A DNA stretch of 64,000 bases from an uncultured Gammaproteobacteria bacterium (GCA_963783185.1 CAWAMT010000008.1:126827-190826), one strand, 5' to 3'; positions 439 through 61,376 are shown, counted from the stretch's first letter. A program made the numbers and translations. The notes: generated from the sequence alone by a model not told the origin.

Positions 439-480
439 CACATGACCTCAGGTACACGCCCAGCGTCCCGCCAGATACTA

Positions 481-975: not shown

Positions 976-1020
976 TGTCAGTGCCTCCTAATCATTTAAT
1001 CAATTTTACTGCTTTGCTTC

Positions 1021-1049: not shown

Positions 1050-1090
1050 CGTACGACCTCAGGTACATCCCGGGGTCCCGCAAGCCACTA

Positions 1091-1582
1091 TTAGGTGTGG
1101 CAGACCGTCGGCAGATACTGCGGAAAGCCAGTGGCAATGGTCGACGCTACGACAGCGTCACCGGCTGGCAAGTTCGCACCGGCCGGGACGAGCGCATTGC
1201 CGCACACCCACACCACGTCGTTATTGGCGTTGGTATAGGCGTTCAGAGACAACGTCAGGCCGAGAAGCTTCGCATTCGCCTGCGAACCATACGTTGCAGT
1301 AATAGCACCCAGGTTGCTGGTGATGCCCGTGACGTACTTGCCGGCCGCGGTGACTTGACCGGAAGCCAGGACTTGCGCGGTAGTTGGGAACGTGCCGTTA
1401 TTGGCAAAGTATTCCGCAGCCTGTGTTTTCCAACCGTCCATGAGGTTCAAACCTTCCGTCACCTGGGCACGGATGGTGTAGTTCTGGTAGGCGGGAATCG
1501 CGATCGCGGCCAAGATACCGATGATGGCAACCACGATCATCAATTCGATGAGCGTGAAGCCTTTTTGCATTTTCTTAAACAT
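1091..1582 (-). CDS. pilA: type IVa major pilin (copy 2)
   Basis: The ORF track gives 1091..1606. ATG 1582 is preferred (MFKKMQKG|FTLIELM...) because aggag lies 5 nt upstream. The mature sequence differs from copy 1 by one residue (NNGTFP vs NNGKFP). Confidence 0.95.
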
Positions 1583-1654
1583 TTTGACTCCTGATGATGA
1601 ACACAAACAAACTTAGTCTTTCGAACAACGGCCTGTGCCGGTGATAGTAGTAGA

Positions 1655-1669
1655 GCAAGCGCTGTGCCA
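1655..1669 (-). promoter_or_regulatory. sigma-54 (-24/-12) promoter for pilin copy 2
   Basis: The minus strand reads TGGCAC-agcgc-TTGCT, matching the TGGCAC-N5-TTGC consensus, about 70 nt upstream of ATG 1582. The PilR (sigma-54 activator) and PilS genes are in the same locus. Confidence 0.75.
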
Positions 1670-1825
1670 AGGAACGATTGGGTCACATAACTCATTGAAG
1701 CAATTTGATTATTTGGCGTAAGTGCTGGGGCCGTTTGACATAGAACCGTCGTCAACCGGCGCCGCCATGTGGCGGCCTTCGTCACACAGTGACAATTTTT
1801 GTCAGCCTGTAGAGCCTGAAGCCGG

Positions 1826-3436: not shown

Positions 3437-3843
3437 AACGAGTCTGCAATCCTGGACTGGCCTACGAACAGAATCTGGCGGCGCGCAATGAAGTTGCATG
3501 TGAACGTAAAGCCCGCGGCCAGGCACTTCGCGATGAGGTAATGCAGGCCCAAAAACCTCACTCCGATGTAAATCACTGCTGCGTTGATGAGAAGCCCTAT
3601 GGCCCCGATGGCCACAAAGCTCGCGAGTTCGGCGCGTCGATCCCGAAGCCGATGCTGATTGAACGCGATCCTTAGCGACAGCTCGTAGGCAACCCAGGCG
3701 CCGGCGAGAAATGAAGTCGTCGCCGCCGAGAGATAACCCCAGGAGAAGAAATGCACCAGAGAGAAGAGGATCGTCATGTCGACCACGAGCGCACACCCGG
3801 ACGCAGCGAGATAACCCACCGCTTCGCCTAGAAACTGTTTCAT
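3433..3843 (-). CDS. GtrA-family membrane protein
   Basis: 136 aa from ATG 3843 ([30 protein letters not shown]...). Small and multi-TM with a GtrA-like pattern. ATGA overlaps at both ends indicate an operon. Confidence 0.7.
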
Positions 3844-8863: not shown

Positions 8864-10504
8864 TTGAGCGATCCACGTCAGCTGCGTTGTGTCATGGCGC
8901 AGCTCAATTTGGTCGTCGGCGACGTGGAGGGTAATACCTCACGAATCATCGCCGCGGCGAACCAAGCGCGCGATCAGAGCGGCGCCGATGTGGTGATGCT
9001 GCCTGAACTTGCCGTGTCCGGTTATCCACCGGAGGATTTGCTGTTCCATTCGGGCATGCGCACGCAAGTAAACAACTCGATCGTCCGGCTGAAAACCCAC
9101 GTGCGGGGAATCACTTTAATTGCGGGCTATCCGGAATACGATGGGGAGCGCATTTTCAATTCGGCCATCGTGATCCGCGACGGTGCGGTCCTCGCCAATC
9201 ACCGCAAGGCCTGCCTACCGAATTACCGAGTATTCGACGAGAAGCGCTATTTCACACCCGGTACCGAACCCACGGTGGTCGAATTGAAGGGAGTGAAGGC
9301 GGGGATATTGGTATGTGAGGACGTGTGGGATCCCGAGCCCGCCGACCGGGCGCGCCGCGCCGGCGCAGAAGTGCTGCTCGTCATCAATGCCTCGCCCTAC
9401 GAGGTAAACAAGCAAATCCAGCGTGAACAGGAAGTCGGCCGCGAGCGAGTGCAAGAGACGGGAGTTCCACTGGTGTTCGTCAACTTGATCGGCGGCCAGG
9501 ACGAATTGGTGTTCGACGGAAATTCCTTTGTCCTCGATAAAAAGGGCGAAGTCACGATGCGGGCTCCGGCATTCACCGAAGGCATGTACGTCGTGGATCT
9601 AGCGCGCGGCGATGGCGGGGAAATCGTGCCATTGCCCGGCGCTATCGTGCCGCTGCAGGGGCAAGAGGAAAGTGTGTACGGCGCTCTAGTCCAAGGCACG
9701 CGCGACTATGTGGACAAGCATCGCTTTCCGGGTGTGGTCTTGGGACTCTCCGGAGGCGTTGATTCTGCCCTGACCCTGTGCATCGCCGTCGATGCGTTGG
9801 GAGCGGATCGAGTGCACTCAGTGGCGATGCCGTCGCGGTACACCTCGCAGATGAGCCGGGACGATGCCGCAGAGCAGGCGGGTTGGCTCAACGTCAAGCA
9901 TAGCGAGATTTCCATCGAGGGCATGTTCGAGGCGACATTGACCGCCTTGAAGGCCGAGTTCGCGGGGCGGCCGCCGGATACCGCCGAGGAGAACATACAA
10001 TCGCGCTGCCGCGGCGTGCTACTGATGGGCATCTCGAACAAGACCGGCCGCATGTTGCTCACCACCGGCAACAAGAGCGAGATGGCGGTGGGCTATGCGA
10101 CATTGTACGGCGATATGGCCGGCGGCTTCGCGCCCATCAAGGATTGCAGCAAGCTGTTGGTATACCGGCTCTGTGCCTGGCGCAACGCCCAATCCCGGGT
10201 GATTCCCGCGCGAGTCATCGAACGGCCGCCCTCGGCGGAACTGAGACATGATCAAAAGGACACCGACAGCTTGCCGCCCTATGAGGTTCTCGATCCCATC
10301 CTAGAGGCCTTCATCGAAGATGATTTATCGGTCGATCAGATCGCGGCGCGCGGCTTCGACCGCAAGACCGTCGGACGCATCCTCGATCTCGTGAAGCGCA
10401 ACGAGTACAAGCGGCGCCAGGCGCCGCCCGGCGTGCGTGTGAGCGGCCGGGCATTCGGACGAGATTGGCGCTACCCGATCACCAGCGGCTATCGTTCGCA
10501 TTAA
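8864..10504 (+). CDS. nadE: glutamine-dependent NAD+ synthetase
   Basis: N-terminal CN-hydrolase domain (LAQLNLVVGD...LPELAVSGYP...ICEDVW) plus NAD synthase domain (GLSGGVDSA...SGGVDS motif). TTG start at 8864; alternative ATG at 8894. Confidence 0.9.
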   Translation: MSDPRQLRCVMAQLNLVVGDVEGNTSRIIAAANQARDQSGADVVMLPELAVSGYPPEDLLFHSGMRTQVNNSIVRLKTHVRGITLIAGYPEYDGERIFNSAIVIRDGAVLANHRKACLPNYRVFDEKRYFTPGTEPTVVELKGVKAGILVCEDVWDPEPADRARRAGAEVLLVINASPYEVNKQIQREQEVGRERVQETGVPLVFVNLIGGQDELVFDGNSFVLDKKGEVTMRAPAFTEGMYVVDLARGDGGEIVPLPGAIVPLQGQEESVYGALVQGTRDYVDKHRFPGVVLGLSGGVDSALTLCIAVDALGADRVHSVAMPSRYTSQMSRDDAAEQAGWLNVKHSEISIEGMFEATLTALKAEFAGRPPDTAEENIQSRCRGVLLMGISNKTGRMLLTTGNKSEMAVGYATLYGDMAGGFAPIKDCSKLLVYRLCAWRNAQSRVIPARVIERPPSAELRHDQKDTDSLPPYEVLDPILEAFIEDDLSVDQIAARGFDRKTVGRILDLVKRNEYKRRQAPPGVRVSGRAFGRDWRYPITSGYRSH

Positions 10505-10545
10505 GAAGCGCCTGGCAGCGAAGGTGTGCCCGGCGGAGCCAGGGG

Positions 10546-11343
10546 CTAGCCGATGAGCTTCCACCAGTGCTTCTTTCGCTGGGTGTCTCTTGCGTTGGCC
10601 GGGTAATTGTCGGCGTACACGCGCTCCGCATTCGCCGCTAGTTCCGGCATATTGAGTTTCCGATAGGCATCGACGAGCACCTTGACGGAGCCTTGCACCG
10701 CGGGCGCGCCGTCATAATTATCGATGCAGAACTTGGCTCGATTGAGGGCGCCGACCCAGGCGCCGCGCCGCATGTAGTATTGTGCAACGTACAATTCGAA
10801 ATCGGCCAGGCGGTTGCGCAGGAATATCATGCGTTGCCTCGAGTCGGCCACATACTCGCTGTGCGGGTACTTTTTCAGCAACTCGTCGAATGCTTCGAAT
10901 GATTTCTTCGCGTTGACCGGAGGCCGCTTCGATAGGTCGACATTGAACCAGCGCTCCATGAAGTTCGCCTGGCGCTCGAAATACACTAGACCCTTCATGT
11001 AGTAGGCGTAATCGACTCGGGGATTGGTCGGGTTCTCGCGAATGAAAGTGTCGGCAGCGTCGATGGCCGGATCGACTTCGCGATTCTTATAGTAGGCGTA
11101 GATCAGATCGAGCTGCGCCTGGCGCGCAGGTTCGCTGAAAGGAAACCGAGATTGTAGTGTTTCAAGCTGTTTGATGGCTTCCCCATAGCTCGAATTCTTC
11201 ATGGCTTTCTGAGCACGGGCATAGAGTACTTCGGGCCCGGATTTGGCGTCGTCTCGATGGCTGCGGCAGCCCCCGGCCAGCACCGCGATGCTGATCGCGA
11301 ACAACAGAACGCCGCACGGACGGACAAGATCACGCAGTCTCAC
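10546..11343 (-). CDS. bamD: outer membrane protein assembly factor BamD
   Basis: GTG at 11343 preceded by aagga. MRLRDLVRPCGVLLFAISIAVLAGGC gives a lipobox, followed by TPR-like YfiO/ComL sequence (LYARAQKAMKNSSYGEAIKQLETLQSRFPFS...). The track ORF start at 11526 is an upstream extension. Confidence 0.85.
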   Translation of the reverse strand: MRLRDLVRPCGVLLFAISIAVLAGGCRSHRDDAKSGPEVLYARAQKAMKNSSYGEAIKQLETLQSRFPFSEPARQAQLDLIYAYYKNREVDPAIDAADTFIRENPTNPRVDYAYYMKGLVYFERQANFMERWFNVDLSKRPPVNAKKSFEAFDELLKKYPHSEYVADSRQRMIFLRNRLADFELYVAQYYMRRGAWVGALNRAKFCIDNYDGAPAVQGSVKVLVDAYRKLNMPELAANAERVYADNYPANARDTQRKKHWWKLIG

Positions 11344-11419
11344 AAGCAATTCCTTACAATGGGTGGACCCTAGGGCGCGGCAGTATACCCGATGCCCCGC
11401 CGCTAGCTTCGAGTGCCCT

Positions 11420-12408
11420 ATGAACGCAGAGTTCCAAGTCATCGACCTCGAAATCCCGGCGGAATTGGCGGGCCAGCGCCTGGACAGCGCGCTGGCGCGG
11501 CTTGCTGCCGGAACATTCACGCACACGCATCAAGGGCTGGATCGACGCAGGCCAGGTGCGGGTCGGCAGCCTGCCCTGCAAGCCCCGCGATTTGGCGATT
11601 GCAGGATCCCGCGTCCATGTGCGGACGAGCACCGAAGCGCCGATAACTGCCGTGTTGCCGGAAGCGATTGCGCTCAATGTGGTGTACGACGACCCTGATG
11701 TGCTGGTAGTGGACAAGCCAGTGGGGTTAGTGGTGCATCCCGGGGCCGGCAACCCGCAACATACTCTGCAAAACGCCTTATTGGGACTGGATCCCGCGCT
11801 GGCGGCATTGCCGCGCGCCGGCATCATCCATCGGCTGGACAAGGACACCAGCGGTTTGTTGGTCATCGCACGAACACCCGAAGCGCATACTGCCCTCAGC
11901 CGCCAGCTCCTGGTCCGCTCGGTGTCTCGCGAGTATCTCGCCGTGTGCGTCGGCGTCATGACCGCCGGAGGCACGATCGATGAGCCGATTGGGCGGCACC
12001 GCAGCGACCGGCTGCGCATGGCCATTCGGCAGGATGGACGGCCTGCGATTACCCACTACCGCGTGCTCGAGCGCTTTCGCGCCCATACCTTCCTCAGCGT
12101 CAGGCTCGAGACCGGGCGGACTCACCAAATAAGGCTGCATCTGGCGCACCTGCGGTATCCCATCGTCGGGGATCCGGTGTATGGCGGCCGCTTTGCACGC
12201 GCCAAGGGCGCAGGGGACGTGCTGGTCGACATTTTACGCGGTTTCAAGCGCCAGGCGCTGCATGCCGCCACGTTGGCCTTCGATCATCCACGTTCCGGTC
12301 AGCGCCTCACGTTGCAAAGCCCCCCGCCCAAGGATTTCGAGGAACTCCTCGTTGCCCTGCGCGATGACCTGCTGCGGTGCCCAGGACAAACGATTCGAGG
12401 GCGCGTAG
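11420..12408 (+). CDS. rluD: 23S rRNA pseudouridine synthase RluD (frame breaks near 11501 and near 12380)
   Basis: [28 protein letters not shown] in one frame continues as [20 protein letters not shown]... (S4 domain) in the next. Catalytic [11 protein letters not shown] motif. The end is inferred at TAG 12406-12408. Confidence 0.8.
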
Positions 12409-13182
12409 GTGGAGGTCGCTTGGCTCACGCCCGATTGGCCGGCGCCCCCAGCCGTGCGGCGCTCTGTCGACCCTGCGCGGCGGCGGGTCGAGCGTGCGCT
12501 CCCTATGCGTCTCTGAACTTGGGCACTCACGTCGGGGATGCGCCGGAAGCGGTCGCCTTGAATCGCCGGCGCCTGCGAAGCGCGGCCGAACTTCCTGCAG
12601 AACCTTCGTGGCTCGCCCAGGTGCACGGCACGCGTGTCGCGGACTTGGATGCTCCTGGGTCGGACGCTCGAGCGCTGGATACTCCCGGTGCGGCAGGTCC
12701 GGCCGATGCCGCCGTTACCCGCCAGCGTGGCCGGGTCTGCGCGATTCTCACCGCCGATTGCCTGCCGCTCCTGTTCGCGAGCGATTCGGGAGACGTCGTG
12801 GCCGCGGCGCATGCGGGCTGGCGGGGGCTTGCCGGCGGCGTGATCGAGGCGACGGTGCGGGCGCTGGCGGCGGCCCCGGAGAGCTCTGCTGGTCTGGCTG
12901 GGCCCCGCCATCGGCCCTCGGCATTTCGAGATTGGGGCCGAAGTCCGCGAGGAGCTGCTCGGGGCGACCCCGGGGCCGAGGCGGCTTTCGAGGCGAATGC
13001 GCGCGGCCGCTTCATGGCGGATTTGGCCGCGCTTGCGCGCCGGCGGCTCAAGCCGGCTCGGCATCGAGCGCATCTACGGCGGCGGCGAATGCACCTACGC
13101 CGACTCGGACCGGTACTTCTCGTACCGGCGCGACGGCAAGACCGGCCGGCAAGCCACCCTCATTTGGCTGCAGACGCCGTAA
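12409..13182 (+). CDS. pgeF: peptidoglycan editing factor PgeF / YfiH family (multiple frame breaks)
   Basis: GTG 12409: [17 protein letters not shown] | [12 protein letters not shown] | [26 protein letters not shown] sit in three successive frames (breaks near 12460 and 12497). Also ...TADCLPLLF...AAHAGWRG... and the C-terminus [27 protein letters not shown]. Confidence 0.75.
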
Positions 13183-49008: not shown

Positions 49009-49749
49009 TCATAATATTTGCATCAATGCTCTCGCCCCGGTCAGGACCGCCAACAGCATCAAGAGGCGCAACACCCAGCGTCGAAAATCTACCGGGTCCG
49101 CGTTCATGAAGCCTCGATTGCCCAACCAGACGCCGGCCGCCAGGGGAGGCAAGAAAAGCACCCCGTTCCAGACCGTCGTCCGGCTAAGTAAGCCGCTCCA
49201 GGCCTGCCACGCAAGTGCGCTGACATCGGTGATCAAAAAGAAGGCGATCAATGAGGCGCGACCGGCTACCGCGCCGGAGGGCGAACTGAAGAAGAACAAG
49301 ATCACCGGCGGCCCGCCGATTCCGAAGCTGCCGTTGAAAAGGCCCGAAGCGGTGCCCGTAGTGAAAGTGACAGCCGGCCCCGGCACAGATTTAAGCGCAT
49401 AGCCCTTCGCCAGCAGGACCGCAGCGAACAGCACGAAAACGGCGAGAGCCAGGGTCATGGGGACCGCCGGCACATGAGCGAGTGCATAGACTCCGATAGG
49501 TGTGCCCACGAGGCTGCCTAGGGTGAGCCAACAAAGCGACCGCCAATGGATGTCGCGCCAAACCCCCGGCAAAAGATGCAGGCTTGCCATGACTTCCATG
49601 ATGAAGATCGAAGGTACGATCTGCGCCGGCGGCAATAGAAGAGAAAGCGATACGATGGCGAGCATCGAGAAGCCAAAACCGCTGTACCCTCGGACGACGG
49701 CGGCACCGAAGATGCAGGCAACAGCATAGAGGAGTATCAGGATTTGCAT
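49009..49749 (-). CDS. TSUP (TauE/SafE) family anion exporter
   Basis: Intact 246-aa multi-TM ORF. ...VVRGYSGFGFSML...GTASGLFNGSFGIGGPPVILFF... Confidence 0.8.
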   Translation of the reverse strand: MQILILLYAVACIFGAAVVRGYSGFGFSMLAIVSLSLLLPPAQIVPSIFIMEVMASLHLLPGVWRDIHWRSLCWLTLGSLVGTPIGVYALAHVPAVPMTLALAVFVLFAAVLLAKGYALKSVPGPAVTFTTGTASGLFNGSFGIGGPPVILFFFSSPSGAVAGRASLIAFFLITDVSALAWQAWSGLLSRTTVWNGVLFLPPLAAGVWLGNRGFMNADPVDFRRWVLRLLMLLAVLTGARALMQIL

Positions 49750-49770
49750 CGGTTGGGCTCGCGCCGGCCC

Positions 49771-52073
49771 TCAACGGACAGTCTGACGATCGTATCGGCT
49801 CAGAATCCACAACGCGCCCGGCAATGCGGTGAAATCGGCCAGCAGCGCGAGCACGAAGGCCGAGGCGGCGACGATGCCGAACTCGCGCATCGGCGGCAGG
49901 TCGGAGAGCGCGAGCGCCAGAAAGCCGCTGGCGTTGATGAGAGTCGCGAACAGAATCGGGCGACCCGCCACCAGCAAGGCGTGTTGCAGGGCGCCGGCGG
50001 TCGTGCCGGTCGAGCGGCCTTCCTGAAAATGATAGAAGAAATGAATCTGGTCGTTCTCGGTCGCGCCCAGCACCGTCGAGCCGATGAGGATGGTGGCGAT
50101 ATTGAGCGGAATGCCCGTCAAGCGCATCACGAGAAACACGGACAGGATCGCGAACAACGAGGGAATCATCGTCATCAAGCGGGCGGACGGGCTGCGAAAC
50201 ACCAGCAGGAAGGCGAGAAAAATGACGCTGGCCGTGAGCGCGAAGCTCTCGGTGAGAGTGGGCAGCAGACGCTGCGTGATCTCCGCGCCGAGCACGCCCT
50301 TGCCGACCACGCTGCCGCGCACCGCGCGCAGCGCCGGCTCGCTCGGCCTGGGCCGCGGCCCATGTCCGCTCCACGAAGGTACGCATCGCGCCGACCTGTC
50401 CGAAGAGCTTCGCTCGGCCGCGGATGCTGAGCCGGACGTTGGCGAGGTCTGTCACATCGACATACGCTGCGCGCGCCGGGCTCGGTCAGCATGATCTGCT
50501 CGAGATCCGCGGCGAGCTTCGGCCACGCGGACGCCGCTGTCGGCAGCTGATCGGATCCGGTTTCGACATAGCGCGCCCAGCGCAGCACCGACGTCGGACC
50601 GTCGACCGCGGTGATGCGCGGATCGCTCTCGAGCCGGCGGGTCAACTGCTCCAGCGCGCGCAGGAAATCCGGGTCCAACGCGTGGCCGGGCGGCGTCTGC
50701 AGCCAGAGCTCGACCACGTCGAGCGCGTTCGACTCCTCGAAATGGCGGGTGTCCTGCGCCACGCGCTCGCTCGGGATTGACGTAGGTCAACACGTCCATT
50801 TCGAGCGCAAGCGGTGCAACCACGCCGGGAATGCCGAACAACGCGGCCGCTCCGCACAGCATCAGCACGAGGGCGCCGCCGACCAGCGGCCAGCGATAGC
50901 GGCGGCTCGCCGGGACCAGGACGTCGACGAAACCCGGGAACCATTTGCCGACCGGCACGATGCTCGGAGCGCATCGGGGTCGCGCAGCAGCGACTGCAGC
51001 GCCGGAAACAGCGTGAAGCAGCCGATCCACGCCACGATGAGGCCGCACGCGGTCCACAGTCCCATCTCGCGCACCGGGACGAATGTCCGAGATGGCGAGC
51101 GCGCCGAAGCCGACCGCGGTGGCGAACATCGAGGCGGTGCACGGCAGGAATTTATTCGCGAGCGCGCGCGCATGGTGCTCGAGAAGAGTCGGCGAATCGT
51201 CCGGCTCGATGTAGCGCGAATGAACATACACGAGCGTGGCGGTGGTCGTGACCATGACGGTCAGCGGCACGAGGGTCGAGATCACGGTGTGCGACCAGCC
51301 GAAGAGATCGGCCAGTCCCATGGCGATCGCGACCAGCGGCGCCGAGCGTAAGAATGATGGCCCCCAACGCGCGCCAGGAGCGGTAGATGATCAGCACCAG
51401 CGTCATCAGAAAAAGTCCGAACAGCGGCATGAAGCGCACCGTCGCCGCGCCGGTCTGCCGCTCGAGCCAGGCATCGAGCCACGGCGATCCGACGCGCCGC
51501 ACCTTGGTGAAGGGACCGCCGGAGGCCTCGAGCGGCAGAGCGAGCGCATCGATCGCCGCCAGTGCCCGGTCGCGCTCGGCGGGCGAAGCCACGCGCAGCT
51601 CGAGCGCGATGCCGAAGTAATGGTCGCCCAGAAGGCCGGCGCGGCGGAACAGCGGCGTTCCGGTCGCGAACGTGCGCAGTACGCTCGGCCTCATCCGGGG
51701 CTGATTTCCGCCGCCGAACCGGCGCGGCGGTAGAGGTCGAGGAGGCTGTGAGCCTCGACGTGCGGAATCTTTGCGAGTTCCTGCTCGAGCCGGTCGGCGG
51801 CGCGCAGCGCGGCGGGGCTCAGAGGGTCCGGCGCTTCGAGCATGATCAGCGCCTGCTCGCCCTCGGGAAACAGTCGATCGAATTCGGACGTGGCGCGCGC
51901 GACCGGATCGCCGCGCGACGATCAGTCGCTCGATCGCGGGATCGTTGGGCACCCGCAAGGCGCCGAATATGCCGGCAGCCGTCGAGGATCAGGAATGCGC
52001 CGGCGATCCAGCGTCGCGCTCGCAGTACACGGAGGAAGAATTGAACGACCTTGGGCGAAGCGGGCACACTCAT
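49771..52073 (-). CDS. MMPL/RND-superfamily exporter (many frame breaks)
   Basis: ATG 52073 gives MSVPASPKVVQFFLRVLRARRWIAGAFLIL. Fragments in ORFs 51152..51958, 50452..51321, 50175..50762 and 49771..50322 carry two membrane-domain repeats (...FMPLFGLFLMTLVLIIYRSWRA...; ...ASVIFLAFLLVFRSPSARLMTMIPSLFAILSVFLVMRLTGIPLNIATI...). Confidence 0.65.
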
Positions 52074-52138
52074 GGATGCAGGCGCGCTCTCTTCGACCGG
52101 AAAAGGTCCTCGGCGCCGTAGCATGATAGCCTAAACAC

Positions 52139-52911
52139 ATGAGTACACTGCTAGCCGCAACGCTTTCGACCCTGGTGTTCTGTGCCCCCGGCTATCCGGG
52201 CGGCGCCGGCGACGCGCAGCCGCTCGTAGACCAATTCGCGACCGCCGCCGCAGCGGTGTCCGGCTGGCCGGCGGGCAGTCTTGCGGCCGTCTACGATCCG
52301 ACCGAGGAGGGCGGCCTGGCGAAGCTTGGCCAGGCCGACGCAGTGCTCGCCTTCGTGCCTTATCCGTTCTTTGTCGAGCACGCGGCGGAGCTGCATCTGA
52401 CGCCGCTCGTGCAGGCAGACGTGGCGGACATCGGTCCACAGCAGCGATGGACGTTGGTTGCAAAGGCGGGCCGCGTTACCGATCCGGCATCCATGGCGGG
52501 GTACACGATACTCAGCGTTGCAGGCTATGCCCCCGATTTCGTTCGACATAGCGCGCTCGCGGGCTGGGCGCTGCCGCCGGACGTGAAGATCGCGTCGACG
52601 GGACAAATCTTAAGCGCGTTGAGGCGGGTCGCCGCCGGCGAACCGGTGGCAGCGCTGCTCGATCAGACTCAGGCGGCGGCGCTGCCAGCCTGCCGTTCGC
52701 ATCGCAGCTCAAGGCCGTCATGCAGTCCCCGGAGCTGCCTGTCGCGCTCATTGCCGTGGTCGGCTCGCGCGTGACCGCAGACCGCGCACGGTCTTTGCAG
52801 GAGGGGCTGCTCAAGATGGGTCATGCAGCGGGAGGTACCAACTCATTGGGGCCGCTGCGTTTGCAAGGTTTCGTGCTGCCGAAACTGCCGCCCGCTGCGG
52901 CAGCGCCGTGA
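52139..52911 (+). CDS. hypothetical exported protein (frame break near 52690)
   Basis: N-terminal signal-like MSTLLAATLSTLVFCAPG. Continues in ORF 52720..52911 (...MQSPELPVALIAVVGSRV...). Divergent from the MMPL gene. Confidence 0.4.
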
Positions 52912-53568
52912 CCCCGCGATCCTGGTGCGGGATCTTGATGCTCGCGATCGCCGGCTGCGCGACACAACCCCGGCCGGCCCCGCCGATACAGGGCGCGGCG
53001 CCGTCGTCGGTCGCTGAACTTGCCGCGGCAATCGAGGCGGACGCGCAACGCAGCGATCACGAACCCGACTCGAAGATTCGCGATCGAACTGGCGGCCGAG
53101 GCCAGCCGCGATGCGGATGCCTGCCTCGCGCGTGAGCCGCAAGCGGCCGCGTGTCTCTACGGCAACGCGGTCGCGCTCGGCCTCGATGCGCGCGCGCACC
53201 CGACGCGCGCGGGCGAATCCTTGAACAGCATGCTCGAGAGTCTGGCGCGCGCCGATTCGGTGGATCCCGACTATGACGAAGCAGGACCCGCGCGCGTGCG
53301 GGCGCTGGTGCTGATTCGTGCGCCGGGGTGGCCGCTGGGACCCGGCGACGCCGAGGCAGGTTTGGCTGCCGCGCGTCGCGCCGTAACGCTCCGGCCGCTT
53401 TATCCGCCAAACCTATTGGCGCTGGCGGAAGCGCTGGCGAAAACAGGAGACTCGAACGGTGCCCGGGAAAACTACGCGCGGGCGCGCGACGCCGCGCAGG
53501 CATTGCCTGCTTCGGCCGATCGGGATGATTGGGTCCGCCAAGCCGATCAGGGGCTGGTGCACAAATAG
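52908..53568 (+). CDS. TPR-like lipoprotein (frame break near 53080)
   Basis: The GTG overlaps the previous stop (GTGA). MTPRSWCGILMLAIAGC gives a lipobox. Continues in ORF 53020..53568 with helical-repeat-like sequence. Confidence 0.45.
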
Positions 53569-53622
53569 CTCCGCTGTGTGGATATATTGCTCGATGATTC
53601 GGCAGCGCAGCAAGATCAGCGA

Positions 53623-53651
53623 TTGACCGACACTCCCGGAGCGAATATAAC
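53623..53651 (+). promoter_or_regulatory. sigma-70-type promoter candidate for the Cys-rich/lyase/kinase-LanC operon
   Basis: TTGACC (53623-53628), a 17-nt spacer, then TATAAC (53646-53651), about 90 nt upstream of ATG 53740 in a relatively A/T-rich intergenic region. Confidence 0.5.
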
Positions 53652-53739
53652 CAAAAAGTACCGAGCCCGAACCGGGCGATTGCATTCAATCCAAGCGTTT
53701 AGATTCTCTCGCCGTCACACGCGTCGCAGGGGGATGAAC

Positions 53740-54453
53740 ATGGCAATGTTTCGTGTACGCAATCTTCTGATCCAGGTATTGCCGCCCATGGCGTGCGAAA
53801 CCGATTCCGCATGCATTCCCCATATTTCGGATGATCCAGTAGCCTGCGCCGAAGCCTCGGCGGCCGCATGCGGCGAGTCGACTGAGAACCCCGAAATTTG
53901 GCAGTGCGGTTGCAGCCTGCATTTCGACACTGGGTGCAATATTTGGCGCTACTCGTTGGTCTGCCGTTCGCCCGCAATCACTCTGGATTGTGTTCCCGGA
54001 GGAGTTACCCTCGTCAATAAAGAAGGCGAACTGGCGGCGATCGCGGAGCCGGACCCGTGTCCAGATCCCAACAGCGGCTGCCAAGTGTTGGTTTCTCTGC
54101 CGCTGTGTCCGGTCGTCACGGACACCGGATGCGGGATAATCGTGAATTCCGGAGTTGCGGTCGAGATGCCGGTTCGAGTCTGCTTCCGTAGCGATGAGCC
54201 GAGACTCAACCCCAATTCGTTGGCCGATCTCGGGGTTCTACGCCGTCAGCTGGCCGCCGGGCTCGCAATCGTTGAACGCCGCGAACGTGCTCTATCGGCT
54301 GAACTAACGCCCCAGACGACGCAGCAAGTTGAACAGGCCGAAGCGATTCTGAACAGTGCGCTCGAGGGTCTGAAAAAGCGCAAGGAACATATTCAATCGC
54401 GGGCGCCGGCAGCTGCGAAGAGTGCAAAGAAATCGAGGGCAAGGAAGAAGTAG
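53740..54453 (+). CDS. cysteine-rich protein with Cys-free helical, Lys-rich C-terminal tail; candidate modification substrate
   Basis: ATG 53740 lies 6 nt after aggggg (the track ORF starts upstream at 53578). 237 aa, with 14 Cys all within residues 19-148, many in (S/T)-x(1-5)-C contexts (TDSAC, DTGC twice, NSGC, SLVC, SLPLC). Residues about 150-237 have no Cys, look coiled-coil-like and end in KSAKKSRARKK. Confidence 0.55.
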   Translation: MAMFRVRNLLIQVLPPMACETDSACIPHISDDPVACAEASAAACGESTENPEIWQCGCSLHFDTGCNIWRYSLVCRSPAITLDCVPGGVTLVNKEGELAAIAEPDPCPDPNSGCQVLVSLPLCPVVTDTGCGIIVNSGVAVEMPVRVCFRSDEPRLNPNSLADLGVLRRQLAAGLAIVERRERALSAELTPQTTQQVEQAEAILNSALEGLKKRKEHIQSRAPAAAKSAKKSRARKK

Positions 54454-54473
54454 GTCCGGGAACTAGACAGTCT

Positions 54474-55604
54474 ATGCCTGTGGTCGAACAGAGACCGTCA
54501 GCGCCGGCGGAATGGTCTCGCGAATCCCTTCGCACCTGCGCTTGCTTCGAAGTCGACTTTCATGCGGCCGGCCAGGAAAAAGGATCGGTAGCGGCCGCGC
54601 GCAACCGCCACGATCATACGGTTCCAAACCGATTTTTGACGGTCGAGGAACTCGCCCTCCTCGCTGCGCTCAAAGTAGAAGGCCCTTTGCCGCCCGCGCT
54701 TCGCGCGCAAGTTCGAAGCTGCGACCAACTACTCGCACGGCTCATTTTAGATGGCTTGATAGAGGTGCGCCTGGATGGGCGCTTCCAGAGCGGGGTATCG
54801 GCGCTTTTGCGCCATAACGGCGATCCGTCGCGTGATTCCACCGCGCACGGAGCCGCCGGCATATCGGACCTCGCTCTTGAATACGCGCTCGCCGTGCGGC
54901 ATTTGCACCCCGGAATTCTTGCCGAGCGGCTCTACATGTTCAACTCGCTCCCTAGAAAAACCTTCTTTCCGGGCGATGCCTCGGCAGAGTATGCCGCCCA
55001 AACGGGTGTCGATGCGGGAAGTCCAGCCCCGAAGATCGGCGGCCGTGAATGGTCGGCGCAGACCGACCCGGGTTGGCTGTACTTCCGGCGCGGCAATCCG
55101 TCCGGGGGCCGATTTAAAATTTATCTTTCTCCGCGCCCGCAAGATATTCGACGCGTCATACATAGTTTCGCCGACGCGCTTGGCGCGCGGTCACGGGGCG
55201 GCAGCGTATTCAAAATGGCATTTCCGGCCGCGGCCCTTAGGCGGCCGGATAAGATCGTGGCGTACCTGCCGACCTTCGACGCGCTCCAGCAGTCACTCTC
55301 ACGGTTGGTGGAGCTGTCGCTCGAGGCCAAGGTCCAAGCCGTGCCGTTCTCCGCGCCGGTGCCGCGGGCTCCAATACTGAGTTGGGGAGTCGATCCGCCG
55401 AACGAAGCCACCGGCACGGGCTCGAGTTGGAGGTCCTGGCTGACACATCAGGTGGCTGCATGCGCGCACGCGATACCACAGACAGAAGCACCGGCCGCCG
55501 CGTTGGATCATTTGAAACTTGCCTTGCAATTGAGGGAGATTGATCCGGTCAGCTGGCTTCCGCGCCAGCAACTTCTGTCGCGAGAGTGGAGACTGGAACT
55601 ATGA
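54474..55604 (+). CDS. HopA1/OspF-like phospho-Ser/Thr lyase candidate (tentative), standalone
   Basis: Motifs GRFKIYLSP (55113-55130 covers FKIYLS), VFKMA and RPDKIVAYL (55242-55268) resemble the K(L/I)(H/Y)(I/L)(S/N) ... FK ... R.DK(I/V)V.Y pattern recalled from lanthipeptide lyase domains and HopA1-family lyases. Its stop overlaps the next ATG (ATGA at 55601-55604). Confidence 0.4.
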   Translation: MPVVEQRPSAPAEWSRESLRTCACFEVDFHAAGQEKGSVAAARNRHDHTVPNRFLTVEELALLAALKVEGPLPPALRAQVRSCDQLLARLILDGLIEVRLDGRFQSGVSALLRHNGDPSRDSTAHGAAGISDLALEYALAVRHLHPGILAERLYMFNSLPRKTFFPGDASAEYAAQTGVDAGSPAPKIGGREWSAQTDPGWLYFRRGNPSGGRFKIYLSPRPQDIRRVIHSFADALGARSRGGSVFKMAFPAAALRRPDKIVAYLPTFDALQQSLSRLVELSLEAKVQAVPFSAPVPRAPILSWGVDPPNEATGTGSSWRSWLTHQVAACAHAIPQTEAPAAALDHLKLALQLREIDPVSWLPRQQLLSREWRLEL

Positions 55605-57307
55605 TCGGCCTGAACCACCGCCTCGTCCTGAACTCCGATATCGTCATCCGCCGATTTGAACCGCAGCCTTCAAATGATTCCAAGGAGGGCTCGGACGACG
55701 ACTTCGTGGTGACGCGTACCGCCAGCAGGTCTCCCTCTCTCGCGGTGAATCGTGAAACCGCCGAGTTTCTCCTGGCATTCTCCAAGCCCTGCGCTTTGTT
55801 AAGTGCCGTTCAGATCATCTCCAGACGCATGCTCGCTGCGCCGGAGACGGTGCTAGAGGAGGTGTATCCAAACTTAAAAACCTTTCTCGACCGGGGGATA
55901 CTGGTGCGGCTCGGCGGCACCCGGCGCGCCGGGCGCGCGCGGCGCATCGGGCCTTGGTCGCTCGAACGCAAAATCAACGATTTCGACGATTCGTCCGTGT
56001 ATCTTGTAAAGAACGATCGCGGCCAATTCGGGGCGCTGAAGCTCGTTCGTTCGGGCGCCGCGGACGGGATGCTCGAACGCGAACGCCGCGTCATGCAAAT
56101 GGTTGGGAATGATCTCGTACCCGCCCTTTTGGATTTCGGGTCGTCATCGCAAGGATCGTATCTCGTCTCGGAATGGAAGTCCGGGTGCGTCGCCGTGGAA
56201 GCATTTGGCGAACTCCGTGCTTCACCCGAATCCAGGCCTGCGCTCCTGCGTCTCGCAATCGCACTGCTGAACGCCTACGAGCGCCTCCATGAACGCGGAA
56301 TCATACATGGCGATATTCAACCTAAGAATGTCGTATTCGATCTGCACGACAGGGCGTGGAGCATCGATTTTTCCAATTCCGTGGTCCCTGGCATGCCGCT
56401 CCCCGAGGGCCGCATGGGAGTGCCGTTCTTCTTTGAGCCAGAATACGCCCGGGCGTTGCTGCTGCAGATCGGCGGCCAGCCCGCGTCGCAGGTGCCGACG
56501 GTGCGCGGAGAGAATTACGCAATTGCCGCCATGCTCTTTTACCTCCTCTCCGGTGTCCATTGCATCGAGTTTTCACCTGAGAGAGAGACATTGCTCCGTC
56601 AAGTGTCGGAAGCGGAGCCGGGTCGTCTCACGGATCCGTGGCGCGCTGAATGGGATGCCGTCGATCGCCTGATTCGTCCGTTTCTCTCGAAAGATCCCGA
56701 GCAACGTCCACCATCGTTGACTTGCCTGCGCGACGGCCTCGAGAGGCTGTTGACGCCTGAACGGGTCGTGCCCATTGCCTTTTCCATCAGACACCAAACC
56801 GATCCCCTGGCGAAGATGAAGGCAGAGTATGGGCTCGGCTCGGTTCGCCTTCGTAAATTCGATCTGGTTCCTCCGCGCTGTTCCCTTACCTATGGAGCAC
56901 CCGGAATCGCCTATGCCCTGTTGCGCGCGTCCGAGTTGTGCGACGACGCCGAACTCTTGTGGGCCGCAGATGCCTGGATCGAGCTTGCCGAACAGTGCTC
57001 AAACGAGCCCGAGGCATTTACAGCTCGCGCAATGGAGCTGACCCGCAATAGAATCGGATATGCCTCGCTCTCCGGCGCCGAGCCGGGACTTTTTTTTGCC
57101 AAGAGCCTGATCCGTGCGGCAGTGGGAGACTCGCAAGGAGCGAAGTTTGCCGTAGACCAGTTTCTTTCCGCCGCGAGTTTCCGGCCCTCGCATCATTCGG
57201 ACACGAATCTCGGCGGAGTCGGATTGGCGTTGGCGGCGGACCGGCTTTCGAAATTGCCGCTGCCCGTCCGATCTCGACAGAAGCTCAGCGGACTTCGTAG
57301 ACAGTGA
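55601..57307 (+). CDS. PqqD-like RRE + Hanks-type Ser/Thr protein kinase + first part of a LanC-like cyclase domain
   Basis: N-terminus: HRLVLNSDIVIRRFEP...LAVNRETAEFLLAFSKPCALLSAVQIISRRM...VLEEVYPNLKTFLDRGILV (PqqD/RRE-like). Kinase: FGALKLV, HGDIQPKN (HGD at 56306-56314), IDFS (DFS at 56366-56374), SKDPEQRP. Then YGAPGIAYALL... and GGVGLALAA, which are LanC-type Gly-rich helix-repeat motifs. Confidence 0.7.
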   Translation: MIGLNHRLVLNSDIVIRRFEPQPSNDSKEGSDDDFVVTRTASRSPSLAVNRETAEFLLAFSKPCALLSAVQIISRRMLAAPETVLEEVYPNLKTFLDRGILVRLGGTRRAGRARRIGPWSLERKINDFDDSSVYLVKNDRGQFGALKLVRSGAADGMLERERRVMQMVGNDLVPALLDFGSSSQGSYLVSEWKSGCVAVEAFGELRASPESRPALLRLAIALLNAYERLHERGIIHGDIQPKNVVFDLHDRAWSIDFSNSVVPGMPLPEGRMGVPFFFEPEYARALLLQIGGQPASQVPTVRGENYAIAAMLFYLLSGVHCIEFSPERETLLRQVSEAEPGRLTDPWRAEWDAVDRLIRPFLSKDPEQRPPSLTCLRDGLERLLTPERVVPIAFSIRHQTDPLAKMKAEYGLGSVRLRKFDLVPPRCSLTYGAPGIAYALLRASELCDDAELLWAADAWIELAEQCSNEPEAFTARAMELTRNRIGYASLSGAEPGLFFAKSLIRAAVGDSQGAKFAVDQFLSAASFRPSHHSDTNLGGVGLALAADRLSKLPLPVRSRQKLSGLRRQ

Positions 57308-57927
57308 TGACGCGCGCGTGGCAGCAATCTCCGCCCGCGTTTGGCGGCCGCAGCCGCCTTGGCTTTGCGCACGGCGTCGCTGGCGTGGTTTTCGCGGCGC
57401 TCGCCGATGGAACATCGCGAGAGACATCGGAAGCGGCGGATCGGCTTCGCGGTTTGCCGGCGATGATTCGCAAAGGTATCCGTTGGCCCGTGCGTGCGGG
57501 AAGTTCCTACTTCATGCCGGGCTGGTGCAACGGCGTGGCGGGGCATCTGTTGGTGTGGACGAGATTGTGGCAATGGTCCGCAGAGACGGCGGACCGGGAA
57601 ATGATGGAGCGGATCGCGTGGGGAATAGTGGAGTCGCGGACCTCGATGGGGAATCTTTGCTGTGGGGCGGCCGGTCAAGCGGTCTCGCTGGCCGTATTCG
57701 CTGCGGCCGCCGCCGAGCCGTCCTGGCGGCGGCGGGCGCAGGAATTCCTCGATAAGCTCGAGCCGCAATGGCCGAAGGACGATCATCCTCAGAGCTTGTA
57801 CCGCGGAGAACTCGGACTCTTGCTCGCGCGGCTGGAGTGCGACGCGTCGGTGCCTCGGTTTCCCGTTTGGGGAGCGAGCCTCGACCCGCGTCCTAGCGTT
57901 TCACGAAACCCGGTCAACGTAGCGTGA
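57304..57927 (+). CDS. C-terminal part of the LanC-like cyclase domain (probably one gene with 55601..57307)
   Basis: Motifs GFAHGVAG, GWCNGVAGH (Cys codon 57526-57528) and NLCCGAAGQA (Cys-Cys codons 57658-57663) correspond to LanC G.AHG.AG / WC.G / CHG motifs. The junction is GTGATGA at 57304-57310. Confidence 0.65.
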   Translation: MMTRAWQQSPPAFGGRSRLGFAHGVAGVVFAALADGTSRETSEAADRLRGLPAMIRKGIRWPVRAGSSYFMPGWCNGVAGHLLVWTRLWQWSAETADREMMERIAWGIVESRTSMGNLCCGAAGQAVSLAVFAAAAAEPSWRRRAQEFLDKLEPQWPKDDHPQSLYRGELGLLLARLECDASVPRFPVWGASLDPRPSVSRNPVNVA

Positions 57928-57949: not shown

Positions 57950-59584
57950 CTACTCGAGCTCTTGTGCGCCGACCAAATGCGTGGTCTTCGGCCCTTCGCC
58001 GATTTGAAAGCGGCGGACAGCCTGCTCCAACACGCGATCCGCCTTGGTCACGCGCTGGTGTTGTCGCAAATGCTCGAGCCAGGAGTCCGTCCGAAAGGTC
58101 TCGATGAATCGGCCCTCCTCGGCGGGGTCCTCAAATATCCCCCAGTCATACGCGCCGTCGCGGCGCCGCTCGCGCGCATATCGGCCGAGCGCGTGCAGGA
58201 ATGGTTCTCCGGTTCTTCGGATCGATGCGGTATTCGATCGTCACCAGAACCGGTCCCCGGTCCGGTTCTATCGCCTGGACGTGACCGGCGCCGGCCAATG
58301 CATGGACGGCGAAAAATCGACGATTCGCGCCCGTCTGCAGCTTCCATCGCCAGGTGAGCGGGATGGCGATCAGCGCGCCCGCGGCCGCGACGAGCAGGGC
58401 GGCGGGCAGCCCGGCGACGGCGGCGAACTCGCCCCACAGCGCGCTGCCGATGGTCAGTGCACCGAACATCACCGTCACATACATCGCAAGTCCGCGACCG
58501 CGAACCCAGTCGGGCAATGCGACTTGCGCCGAGACATTGAGGCTCGACACCGCGGCGATCCACGATGCGCCGGCGATGAGGCTGGCTGCGATCGCCGTCA
58601 CGGGGTCGTGAGCGAGCGCAAACAGCGCCATGCCGACCGAAGTGGCCAAAGTGGCGGCCGCGACCAGCCGGTCTGCGCCCAATTTCGCCTTGAGACTGTC
58701 GCAGCAAGAACGCGCCACCCACGGCCGCGGCCCCGATGGCGCCCAGCAACAGCCCGTACAGCGCAGGGCCCCCGGCGATCTGGCTGCGTGCGACCAGCGG
58801 CAACAGCGCCCAGTAGGCGCTGGCAAATACGAAGAAAGCCGCTGGCCCGGATCAACGTCGCGCTGAGATGCCTGTTGTATCGCGCGTGTCGCAGACCGGT
58901 GCGCACCGCGTTGCCGAATGGCTTCGGGCGGCAGGTGCGCGCCGCTTTTGTCCGGGCGGACGCCACCATAGCGAGCGCCGCAATGACCCCGACGTTACTG
59001 AATGCATCGAGCCAGAACGGCGCCGCAATCCCGAATGCGCCAATGAGCAAGCCGCCGAGTGCCGGCCCGACGGCGCGGCTGACGTTGATGCCTACACTGT
59101 TCGCCGCAACTGCGGCGGTCAGTTCCGATTTCGGTACGAGCTGAGGCACCACCGCCTGCCACGCGGGAGCGGTGACGGCCGAGCCGACGCGTCACAATGA
59201 AGCTGAAGACCAGGAGACCGGCCGGCGTGATGAGATGCAGCCAGACGAGCGCTGCGAAGGCGGTCGAGGTGATCAGTGATCGGCGGACTCGCCAAGGATC
59301 AGGAATCGGCGCTGATCGACGATGTCCACGAGCGCGCCCGCAGGAATGGCGAACAGAAACATCGGCAGGCTGTTGGCGACCTGCACCATCGAGACGATGA
59401 AGGGGTCCGGATCGAGGCTGGTCATGAGCCAGCCGGACGCGACGTTATACATCCAACCACCGATGTTCGAGACCACCGTCGCGATCCAGATCACTGCGAA
59501 CATCTTGTGGCGAAACGGAGCCCACGGCGAAGCGGCTGGGTGATTCGCTTTAGCCGCTGGATCGTTCAGGGTTGGTGCGCTCAT
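57950..59584 (-). CDS. MFS_3 (EntS-like secretion effector) transporter with C-terminal ABM-like extension (several frame breaks)
   Basis: N-terminus: PFRHKMFAVIWIATVVSNIGGWMYNVASGWLMTSL...LFAIPAGALVDIVDQRRFLILGE. Further TM segments in ORFs 58598..59152 and 58146..58826. The tail ...VLVTIEYRIDPKN...DWGIFEDPAEEGRFIETFRTDSWLEHLRQHQRVT... reads through to TAG at 57950-57952. Confidence 0.65.
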
Positions 59585-59708
59585 GTCGATCAGTTGGGAG
59601 CCTAACCGAAGAGAGCAATCCTAACTCAACTCGAGGAGCGGGATTGCCCGCGATGGCATGCCTCGTCTACCATCACAGCCCTCGCTTCGCGGCGTCGAGC
59701 ACATCCCC

Positions 59709-60639
59709 ATGATTGCCTCCGAGGTCTTCATCACCTGCGCCGTGACGGGTTCGGCGGATTCGGTGAGCAAGAGCCGCAACGTGCCGGTGACGCCCGCGCA
59801 GATTGCCGCCTCGGCGCTCGATGCCCACGCGGCCGGCGCAGCGATCGTCCATCTGCATGTCCGCGATCCGCGCTCCGGCGCCGCGAGCCGTGACCCGGCG
59901 CTGTTCCGCGAAGTCGTCGACCGCATCCGCCAAGCGAACAGCGAGGTGATCCTCAATCTCACCGGCGGCATGGGCGGCGATCTCGTGCTCGGGCCGGAAC
60001 AGGCACCGCTCAATCTAGCAAGCGGCACGGATTTCGTCGGGCCTCGCGAGCGGATTGCGCATGTCCTCGAGTTGCTCCCGGAGATCGGAAGCCTCGATTG
60101 CGGTTCCCTCAATTTCGACGAAGTGCTCTACGGCACGACTCCCGGCTATCTGCGGCGCATGGCGCGCGCCTACCAGGAGAGGAACGTGCGGGCGGAGCTC
60201 GAGGTCTTCGAACTCGGCCACATCGAACTCGCCAAGCAGCTTCTCGCCGAGGGGCTCATCGATCCGCCGGCCCTGTTTCAGCTGTGCCTCGGCATCAAGT
60301 ACGGTGCGCCTGCCAGTTCGGAGGCCATGCAGGCGATGCGCGATGCGTTGCCGGCGGGAGCGCTGTGGTCTGCATTCGGGCTCGGCCGAATGCAGATGCC
60401 GATGGTGGCCCAGGCGGTGCTGCTGGGCGGCAATGTGCGCGTGGGGCTCGAGGACAATCTCTACCTCGAGCGGGGTGTCCTGGCGACGAACGCTCCAATT
60501 GGTCGAACGGGCGCGGTCGATCATCGAGCTGTTGGGCGCTCGTGTGCTCACCGCGCCGCAAACACGCGAGCGGCTCGGACTGCGCGACACTTGGTCGAGG
60601 CAGAGGGCACCGCTAGCGTCGCCTTCAAGATCGCGGTAA
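59709..60639 (+). CDS. 3-keto-5-aminohexanoate cleavage enzyme (BKACE/DUF849) family (frame break near 60490, 3' end uncertain)
   Basis: MIASEVFITCAVTGSADS...VPVTPAQIAASALDAHAAGAAIVHLHVRDP...LNLTGG...LGGNVRVGLEDNLY..., then in a shifted frame LVERARSIIELLGARVLTAPQTRERLGL. Confidence 0.75.
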
Positions 60640-60642
60640 TCT

Positions 60643-61376
60643 TCAAGCTGGCACGGATCGATCACCGCGAGCAGAGGTCGCCCGCGGCCGGTCAGCGCGA
60701 TGGCATCGTGGCTGATCCGTGGCGAGACCGGCTGCCCGCATGCGCTCCTTCAGCCGCTTTTTTTCGTCTCGCGAGAAGAATTCAATGTCGTCCACTTTCT
60801 TCAGTTGCGGTACGAAGCTCCGGCAGTCCCTCGTCCCAGCGCTTGAAGATAGCGCGGCATCGAGATGACGTCGAAGCCTCCCTGGACGCGGAGGCGACGA
60901 TCTTGCCGCGCTTCCGTCGGATCCTCGGGCAGCGGCGCCCAGATCCAGCGCGGCAAGCTGTACCAATGCGGTACCAGTGCGGCGCGTTCTGCTGGCGGGC
61001 GAGGTCCAATTCCTCGGGCTCGATGTCGTACGCTTGCACGATTTGAAGACAGTTTTCGGAAAACGCGTAATACAAGGGCCGTCCGTTCCAGAGCGCGGTC
61101 GTGCCATAGATCAGCGCGATCAGTTGCACGGCGACGATCATGGCGATGTCGCGCGTGAGCTCGCGGCGCGATTTTTCGGAGCTGGCGATGATCAGCGTGA
61201 GCGAGCGGGCCGAACACCAATCGACGCCGACCATGCACGGCGACGACCCGCGGGACATCGGCCAAATACCAGCCCGGCCAGTGATACCAGCCGAGGTAGA
61301 GCGCGCCGAGCGTCAGCGTCAGGACGCTGGCGCTGCCGAGAAGATGCAGCCCGAAGGCTTTGAATCTGAACTTCAA
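60643..61376 (-). CDS. membrane protein resembling type IV pilin accessory protein (TfpX/TfpZ/FimB-like), several frame breaks
   Basis: TTG 61376 gives MKFRFKAFGLHLLGSASVLTLTLGALYLGWYHWPGWYLADV. Other frames carry ...LTLIIASSEKSRRELTRDIAMIVAVQLIALIYGTTALWNGRPLYYAFSENCLQIVQAYDIEPEEL..., PHWYSLPRWIWAPLPEDP and ...LKKVDDIEFFSRDEKKRLKERM. The family assignment is from memory. Confidence 0.45.

Follow-up and report, generated by a model that had tools for sequence, protein, structure and literature searches.

The question raised by this locus is what a compact run of four co-directional open reading frames (ORFs) makes, when together they specify a cysteine-rich protein, a lyase-like protein, a protein kinase and a LanC-like cyclase. 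They occupy positions 53623–57927 of the window, by which is meant the whole stretch of 64,000 nt analysed here, from an uncultured Gammaproteobacteria bacterium (GCA_963783185.1, CAWAMT010000008.1:126827–190826). An initial annotation, made from the sequence alone, had described four genes forming a lanthipeptide-like operon. The observation is confirmed and the lanthipeptide-like interpretation is supported, with the correction that the four ORFs are three genes, encoding a precursor, a separate phospho-lyase and a kinase-cyclase, because the boundary between ORF3 and ORF4 is a one-base frameshift within a single kinase-LanC gene. The three-gene cassette probably serves to cross-link its own precursor, ORF1, through lanthionine-type thioethers. 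All cassette features lie on the + strand. ORF1 (53740–54453) encodes the precursor or substrate candidate, 237 aa from an ATG behind an AGGGGG ribosome-binding site; ORF2 (54474–55604) a 376-aa candidate stand-alone phospho-Ser/Thr lyase with an N-terminal domain resembling the recognition element (RRE) found in enzymes for peptides that are made on the ribosome and altered after translation (RiPPs); ORF3 (55601–57307) a 568-aa protein in which an RRE and a Hanks-type kinase precede the opening half of a LanC domain; and ORF4 (57304 or 57307 to 57927; 207 or 206 aa) the second half of LanC. The junctions first described can be read in the sequence, with a 20-nt gap between ORF1 and ORF2, an ATGA overlap between ORF2 and ORF3, and GTGATGA between ORF3 and ORF4. 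The frameshift is new relative to the initial annotation, as are an RRE-like domain on the lyase, a CCG zinc motif in the cyclase and a precursor size that is specific to one clade.

The kinase-cyclase can be followed across both of its reading frames. Residues 1–103 of ORF3 (55601–55909) were modelled with AlphaFold2 (AF2) from an alignment of the proteins returned by homology search, giving a model with a predicted local distance difference test score (pLDDT) of 76, in which four short strands lead into three helices. Foldseek matched this model to MibB, TigE, PqqD, TbiB1 with its leader, TbtB, ThcOx and MccB, with template modelling (TM) scores of 0.70–0.74 when normalised to stand-alone RREs, and with the RRE of MibB as the best fold match; Pfam ThcOx and PqqD gave weak, sub-threshold matches to the same domain. 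The N-terminus of ORF3 is thus confirmed, by predicted fold, as a PqqD-like RRE, which would be expected to bind a leader. The kinase domain follows at residues ~126–400 (55976–56800), matches Pfam Pkinase (1.4e-9) more strongly than APH (5.8e-5), and keeps the catalytic residues K147, E161, D238, N243 and D256, all invariant across 21 diverse members. LanC begins within ORF3 at residues ~420–568 (56858–57304; Pfam LANC_like positions 4–95), a segment collinear with the fused proteins of relatives, and is completed by ORF4 (57307–57927; LANC_like 156–340, E = 1.3e-14), so that the domain is full length, covering profile positions 4–340 across the two ORFs. Its AHG, WCNG and CCG motifs are nearly invariant across the same 21 members and include H22, C74 and C118/C119 of ORF4. 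The zinc ligands are C74 and C118/C119, and CCG stands in place of CHG, so that a Cys replaces His as the third ligand. In NCBIfam, the best match of both parts was class IV LanL, ORF3 aligning with LanL 237–544 and ORF4 with LanL 657–801. Judged by conserved residues, kinase and cyclase both look competent. The Hanks-type kinase and its N-terminal PqqD-like element were correctly recognised at the outset, and so was LanC in ORF4, except that the cyclase is not confined to that ORF. The databases name the relatives of the kinase-cyclase only as 'serine/threonine protein kinase' or 'hypothetical protein'.

The stand-alone HopA1/OspF-like lyase proposed in the initial annotation is clear in fold and weak in sequence. 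Pfam HopA1 matched ORF2 below threshold (E = 0.21; 11.9 bits against a cut-off of 22.7), and among 23 close relatives it matched seven, the best at E = 0.006, while RamC_N, the lyase end of a class III enzyme, matched two; searches of NCBIfam and PADLOC returned no match for ORF2. An AF2 model built on 23 sequences (pLDDT 76, predicted TM score 0.70) was more informative. The top 17 PDB matches in Foldseek are all phospho-Ser/Thr lyases, and the probability falls sharply past rank 17. They are LxmY (9dk2_B, the best, E = 1.7e-4), which is part of the lexapeptide LxmKY dehydratase, HopA1 (4rsx and 4rsw), SalKC, CuvL, ThurKC and SpvC, and the alignments are partial, with TM scores of 0.24–0.37 normalised to the query. 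The fold lies in residues ~190–362 (55041–55559). Among 32 diverse members of the ORF2 family the residues K215, Y217, K247, R257, D259, K260 and Y264 are invariant, and the spacing of K215, K247, R257 and Y264 (32, 10 and 7 residues) is that of R187, K219, R229 and Y236 in CaoY. Mutation supports K219 as the base of CaoY, whose R187, R229 and Y236 correspond to K104, R148 and Y158 of SpvC (PMC9486802). The four ORF2 residues are candidate catalytic residues, matched to those of CaoY by spacing and not by structural superposition. Lyases of the OspF/SpvC/HopA1 fold are marked by a catalytic Lys base, a carbonyl-activating Lys or Arg, a phosphate-binding Arg and a Tyr. The C-terminal half of ORF2 clearly has a phospho-Ser/Thr lyase fold in the predicted model, and lyase activity is its candidate function. 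The N-terminal ~100 residues of ORF2 have, in the AF2 model, a strand and three-helix layout similar to that of the ORF3 RRE, and the domain (residues ~19–105; 54528–54788) aligned with the ORF3 RRE profile in hhalign with a probability of 79.5% (E = 1.5e-5). Some other matches were put down to chance, namely RAD51, a GGDEF protein and RdmE in profile searches of PDB sequences, and Rng_hyd_C in Pfam, where the matches stem from a short RPDKIVAY-like motif.

ORF1 had no match in Pfam, NCBIfam or PADLOC, and its nature is seen in comparison with its relatives. From an N-terminal motif it runs through a Cys-rich core and a conserved helix to a coiled coil and a Lys-rich tail. The N-terminal motif, FRVRNLLIQVL (residues 4–14; 53749–53781), conforms to a family motif F-x-[VI]-[KR]-[DN]-L-[ML]-[IV], and is followed by a hypervariable core rich in Cys, Ser and Thr (residues 19–148; 53794–54183) with 14 Cys, and then by the family-wide post-core helix motif LADLGVLRRQLAAGLA (residues 161–176; 54220–54267). 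Close homologues of ORF1 adjoin the lyase gene, directly upstream. Both the N-terminus and the last ~90 aa are retained in them, but another sequence, such as CDDSG/CDDDSG repeats, takes the place of the Cys-rich middle, and few core Cys are conserved even between close relatives. In the wider family, precursors were found by a pattern search with the N-terminal motif upstream of the lyase gene. Such a motif-bearing ORF is present in the window and at 56 related loci with the same anatomy, which supports ORF1 as the linked substrate gene. The F of the motif sits at residue 2–4 in most precursors, and a helix L-x-x-L-[RK]-[QR]-Q-L follows the last Cys in 55 of the 56, in most of them 13–33 residues downstream. 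Between these ends the cores are hypervariable and often consist of tandem units, such as CTPSPP, CTGTT, CPDDSHG, CYASGGG, CT-x-CT and CDDSG. They are 13% Cys and 18% Ser plus Thr, and in none of 46 cores does Cys outnumber Ser plus Thr; Asp, Gly and Pro are abundant as well. Such a build, with a hypervariable core set between conserved ends, agrees with a RiPP-type substrate. Precursor length varies from 58 to 270 aa among the motif-matched ORFs, the CTPSPP-repeat precursors being short relatives of 85–110 aa, and the closer homologues of ORF1 reach 333 aa; the protein-sized precursor is specific to the clade of the window, and the precursors of 58–270 aa in relatives have the same build. The C-terminal part of ORF1 itself (residues ~177–237; 54268–54450) is a coiled-coil-like segment with a tail rich in Lys and Ala, AAKSAKKSRARKK. 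A coiled coil is seen again in many long-form precursors, and the basic tail is limited to an Acidobacteriaceae/Bryobacteraceae clade. The possibility that ORF1 is a folded zinc-binding or histone-like protein was rejected, the Cys positions being unconserved and the Lys-rich tail clade-specific.

Taken together, a pathway can be proposed in which the RRE of the kinase-cyclase and the related N-domain of ORF2 would dock onto the two ends of ORF1, the FRVRNLLIQVL strand motif and the LADLGVLRRQL helix; the candidate peptides bound by the ORF3 RRE and the ORF2 N-domain are MAMFRVRNLLIQVLPP and NPNSLADLGVLRRQLAAGL. The N-terminal motif may serve as an RRE-binding leader and the post-core helix as a recognition helix in a follower, and the coincidence of two conserved precursor ends with two RRE-like domains suggests a bipartite recognition. 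The Hanks-type kinase would then phosphorylate Ser and Thr of the core, and ORF2 would beta-eliminate the phosphate to give dehydroalanine or dehydrobutyrine, with K247 as the candidate base assisted by K215, R257 and Y264. Finally, the LanC domain, with its three-Cys (CCG) zinc site, could join core Cys thiols to the dehydro residues. Since the cassette encodes neither a protease nor an exporter, the product may stay as a cross-linked protein, or may be processed by genes elsewhere.

The arrangement recurs widely. Twenty-five close relatives of ORF2 were found by word-indexed search, and an exhaustive profile search places the lyase family at 1,250 clusters at 50% identity (1,058 with E ≤1e-10). 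A scan of species-representative genomes gave 93 loci, of which 80 were kept. The 93 come from Acidobacteriota (Thermoanaerobaculia, Holophagales, Acidobacteriaceae, Bryobacteraceae) and also from Rhodocyclaceae, Zoogloeaceae, Gemmatimonadota, Actinomycetota, Chloroflexota, Pirellulaceae (Planctomycetota) and Alphaproteobacteria, the closest genome match to the window being an Acidobacteriaceae metagenome-assembled genome (MAG) at 67% identity. Synteny elsewhere, which had been named beforehand as a test of the idea, is strongly positive: in essentially all of the 80 loci an RRE-kinase(-LanC) gene lies immediately 3' of the lyase gene, and the genes flanking the cassette vary from locus to locus. 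One proteobacterial subgroup stands apart, and includes Roseomonas alba (L062), Sphingomonas parva (L069), Phenylobacterium (L065, L083, L084) and loci L063, L074, L076 and L082. Its lyase is short and lacks the N-terminal domain, its kinase protein is ~660–710 aa with no detectable LanC domain, and its precursor is ~195 aa with a single Cys, which falls within a conserved PNPDCGGTSLETIPTPITPVV motif. The subgroup may represent a related system whose chemistry differs. Elsewhere, in many loci of Thermoanaerobaculia and other Acidobacteriota, ORFs of ~1180 aa with two kinase-like regions flank the cassette, frequently at either end of it and in the same orientation (L013, L014, L017, L018, L020, L026, L035, L040, L042, L054 and L079, at ~1800–5400 and 9300–12900 in each). 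The three that were scanned, which come from L014 and L018, have two Pkinase domains and PD40 beta-propeller repeats; such flanks are absent from the window. An acidobacterial locus (L019) has, besides its fused kinase-LanC, an extra stand-alone LanC-like ORF upstream of the cassette (424–1830).

Enzyme architecture divides the lanthipeptide synthetases into six classes. The layout of the cassette, read from sequence and predicted structure, belongs to none of the six and represents a new architectural variant of what would be lanthipeptide-type synthesis. No description of this architecture was found in the literature covered, most subscription-journal papers lying outside that coverage. Class IV LanL enzymes (VenL, SgbL) are alike in having a Hanks-type kinase followed by a zinc-site LanC on one polypeptide, and in dehydrating by phosphorylation and an OspF-fold lyase, as proposed for the cassette. 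LanL enzymes carry the lyase on the same chain, as its N-terminal domain, and have no RRE, leader binding having been attributed to the kinase domain (PMC8341899). The cassette, unlike LanL, has a separate lyase gene, an RRE at the kinase N-terminus and a CCG zinc motif. The LanL chain of N-terminal lyase, kinase and LanC is not seen, since ORF3, like the 58 fused relatives, begins with an RRE, and the scores against the LanL model NF038150 (63.5 bits for ORF3 and 60.7 for ORF4) are well short of its cut-off of 650 bits, but the zinc-binding cyclase that marks LanL is present in the form of H22, C74 and C118/C119. Class V (LanK/LanY/LanX) has an APH-type kinase and no LanC (PMC10604976). Its LanK/LanY enzymes (LxmKY, CaoK/CaoY, and TvaC/TvaD of the thioamitides) resemble the cassette in having a stand-alone HopA1-like lyase, which ORF2 is by fold and only sub-threshold by sequence; LxmY is the best fold match of ORF2, and CaoY shares the catalytic Lys/Arg/Tyr spacing. 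An equivalent of SpvC His106 is absent from both the class V lyases and ORF2, but where CaoY has Arg187, ORF2 has a Lys, as in OspF and LanL. Further differences from class V are the additional RRE-like domain of ORF2 and the kinase, which is Hanks-type and LanL-like, scores better with Pkinase than with APH, and is fused to LANC_like.

LanKC (class III) and LanKCb (class VI) are single polypeptides, and the LanKC cyclase has no zinc ligands. The lyase-kinase-cyclase chemistry of both classes is that proposed here, and the ORF2 model finds matches in the lyase domains of SalKC, CuvL and ThurKC, but in the cassette zinc ligands are present, the lyase is separate, and the class III model NF038151 gives 40.7 bits against a cut-off of 575. 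Class VI enzymes are single chains with truncated lyase and cyclase domains and very short substrates, reported only in streptococci (PMC10676316); here the LanC domain is full length, the lyase separate and the precursor 237 aa. The RRE has its best counterpart in class I, MibB being a class I dehydratase (LanB), but class I dehydration is unrelated in chemistry and depends on glutamyl-tRNA. The precursor motif F-x-V-K-D-L-M also seems to resemble the class I F-N-L-D leader box. ProcM, of class II, is a LanM with a lipid-kinase-like dehydratase; it is not known to have a separate lyase or an RRE, and the recognition part of its substrates is a long N-terminal leader. What the cassette shares with ProcM-like enzymes and their prochlorosins is the CCG zinc motif and hypervariable cores joined to conserved recognition sequences. 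CCG, with three Cys zinc ligands, has been described as distinctive of ProcM-like class II enzymes and linked to promiscuity (PMC8524650). A bolder proposal can be built on these comparisons, which is offered tentatively and which we doubt slightly more than we believe: that the cassette represents an undescribed class of lanthionine synthetase, in which a stand-alone RRE-lyase would join an RRE-kinase-LanC (CCG) in gripping the substrate at its N-terminal leader strand and its C-terminal follower helix and would stitch many thioether rings into protein-sized, repeat-built, hypervariable cores, the product being a cross-linked 'lanthi-protein' retained inside the cell or on its surface and not a small secreted peptide.

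The kinase-cyclase gene is interrupted in this record. The frameshift site lies at 57301–57309, where a base is missing from a conserved Leu codon at ~57304, just before TGATGACG; the window reads CAG-TGATGA (CAG-TG ATG), and relatives read CAG CTC ATT or CAA TTG ATA. Joined, ORF3 and ORF4 are collinear with single-ORF relatives, with a gap of one residue only at the junction. An alternative is that the split is genuine, giving a two-polypeptide cyclase by translational coupling at GTGATGA, and it is true that stop and start overlap exactly, that the break falls between helices of the LanC toroid with no residue lost, and that the deposited record has a 568-aa product (P0220), although exact-sequence look-ups with ORF3 and ORF4 returned no match. 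Yet in the relatives at 82%, 75% and 74% identity one protein of 769–770 aa combines both parts, the first related loci examined have a single product of 762–815 aa, and kinase and LanC share one ORF of ~770 aa at 58 of the 64 related loci with both domains; five other loci, all MAGs, are broken, each away from the position of the break in the window. At least four neighbours of the cassette are also frame-broken, one of them by an indel relative to an independent contig. Because relatives are fused and neighbouring genes are broken too, the split most likely reflects either an indel of the assembly or a mutation that recently inactivated the gene, and a working two-part cyclase is improbable.

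An unlikely alternative to thioether cross-linking is that ORF1 is modified without ending up as an intramolecular lanthionine network: the cassette may leave dehydro-residues only, an external small thiol may be added, as eukaryotic LanCL proteins add glutathione, or the Cys may have another role, such as metal binding. The proteobacterial subgroup with kinase and lyase, no detectable LanC and a one-Cys precursor would suit such an outcome, as would the unusual Cys to Ser/Thr offsets and the abundance of Asp, Gly and Pro besides Cys in the cores. Against it, the zinc and acid/base residues of LanC are nearly invariant in the main family, every core combines its 13% Cys with Ser and Thr, and the Cys positions are unconserved, as expected of a substrate and unlike a folded metal site. 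That the genes form a signalling module, with kinase and lyase irreversibly switching a regulatory ORF1, perhaps together with neighbouring membrane kinases, is a more doubtful idea still. It draws on the dual-Pkinase/PD40 proteins beside many acidobacterial cassettes, on a gene for an extracytoplasmic function (ECF) sigma factor and a Pkinase-TPR gene upstream at one related locus, on the coiled coil and Lys-rich tail of ORF1 in the clade of the window, and on the absence of exporter and protease; but the dual-kinase flanks are missing from the window and from many loci, RRE domains are a hallmark of RiPP enzymes, and hypervariable, repeat-built cores between conserved ends typify RiPP precursors and not regulators. 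Anti-phage defence built on a Ser/Thr kinase was rejected as very improbable: the ORF3 kinase matches the PADLOC models PD-T4-6, MkoA and mad6 at 1e-9 to 1e-15, but only over the generic kinase domain, the other three ORFs have no PADLOC match, and restriction-enzyme genes, fragmented, were found near only one related locus (L005). The preferred reading, that of a thioether-installing cassette, has to carry several contrary observations. The lyase assignment comes from a predicted model and residue spacing, with no significant sequence match, and profile searches of the whole of ORF2 and of its lyase domain against PDB sequences gave nothing relevant; the copy in the window may be inactive because its cyclase is split; cyclisation cannot be universal in the wider family if the proteobacterial subgroup, with a single-Cys precursor, truly has no LanC; and no protease, transporter or immunity gene is conserved beside the cassette in the related loci examined. 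The enrichment of Ser and Thr falls at positions +1, +3 and +4 following Cys and −2 preceding it, more strongly C-terminal than N-terminal to Cys (z-scores inflated by repeats), and Ser/Thr C-terminal to Cys is not known to be the commonest ring direction among lanthipeptides. For every family member, the thioether chemistry is inferred from sequence and models.

If the thioether reading is true, lanthionine formation would extend to protein-sized substrates, a promiscuous-looking cyclase would become available for engineering, and a rule for genome mining would be at hand for a family that now hides under generic kinase and hypothetical names. The family is widespread, its lyase alone spanning Acidobacteriota, Proteobacteria, Gemmatimonadota, Actinomycetota, Chloroflexota and Planctomycetota, and its precursors are unusual in having conserved sequence on both sides of the core, tandem Cys-Ser/Thr units, and lengths of up to ~330 aa.

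Upstream of ORF1, the promoter first described as good, TTGACC-N17-TATAAC (53623–53651), is present and can be read directly in the sequence, but it is weak evidence because chance alone would supply roughly one such site in this 5.5-kb stretch; a consensus scan did not list it because its last base is C. The lower third-position GC content (GC3) seen initially is real, with 0.62–0.73 in the four cassette ORFs against 0.73–0.84 in seven flanking ORFs. The hint of horizontal acquisition drawn from it gains modest support from these values and from the independent contig, L001 (Logan ERR10755938), of which positions 1–5042 correspond to window positions 52043–57084. The two are 100% identical over 53436–57084 and show ~30 differences, including three indels, over 52043–53435, the boundary lying ~190 bp upstream of the candidate −35 box. 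This pattern fits a cassette that was recently shared or recombined, or else an assembly that is chimeric.

The frame-broken neighbours are an MFS_3 exporter-like gene (58146–59584, − strand) in three pieces, a BKACE gene (59658–61046, +) with its C-terminus in another frame, an MMPL/RND-like gene (49391–51958, −) spread over at least four overlapping ORFs, and a gene at 52139–52912 (+) that is shortened by a 1-nt deletion at 52683 relative to L001; they point to assembly indels or to a decaying genome. L001 itself stops at window position 57084, 220 bp before the frameshift site. It ends exactly at a GC-rich hairpin with a run of eight T (57071–57097), which lies inside the coding sequence of ORF3 and is probably a break point of short-read assembly, not a terminator.

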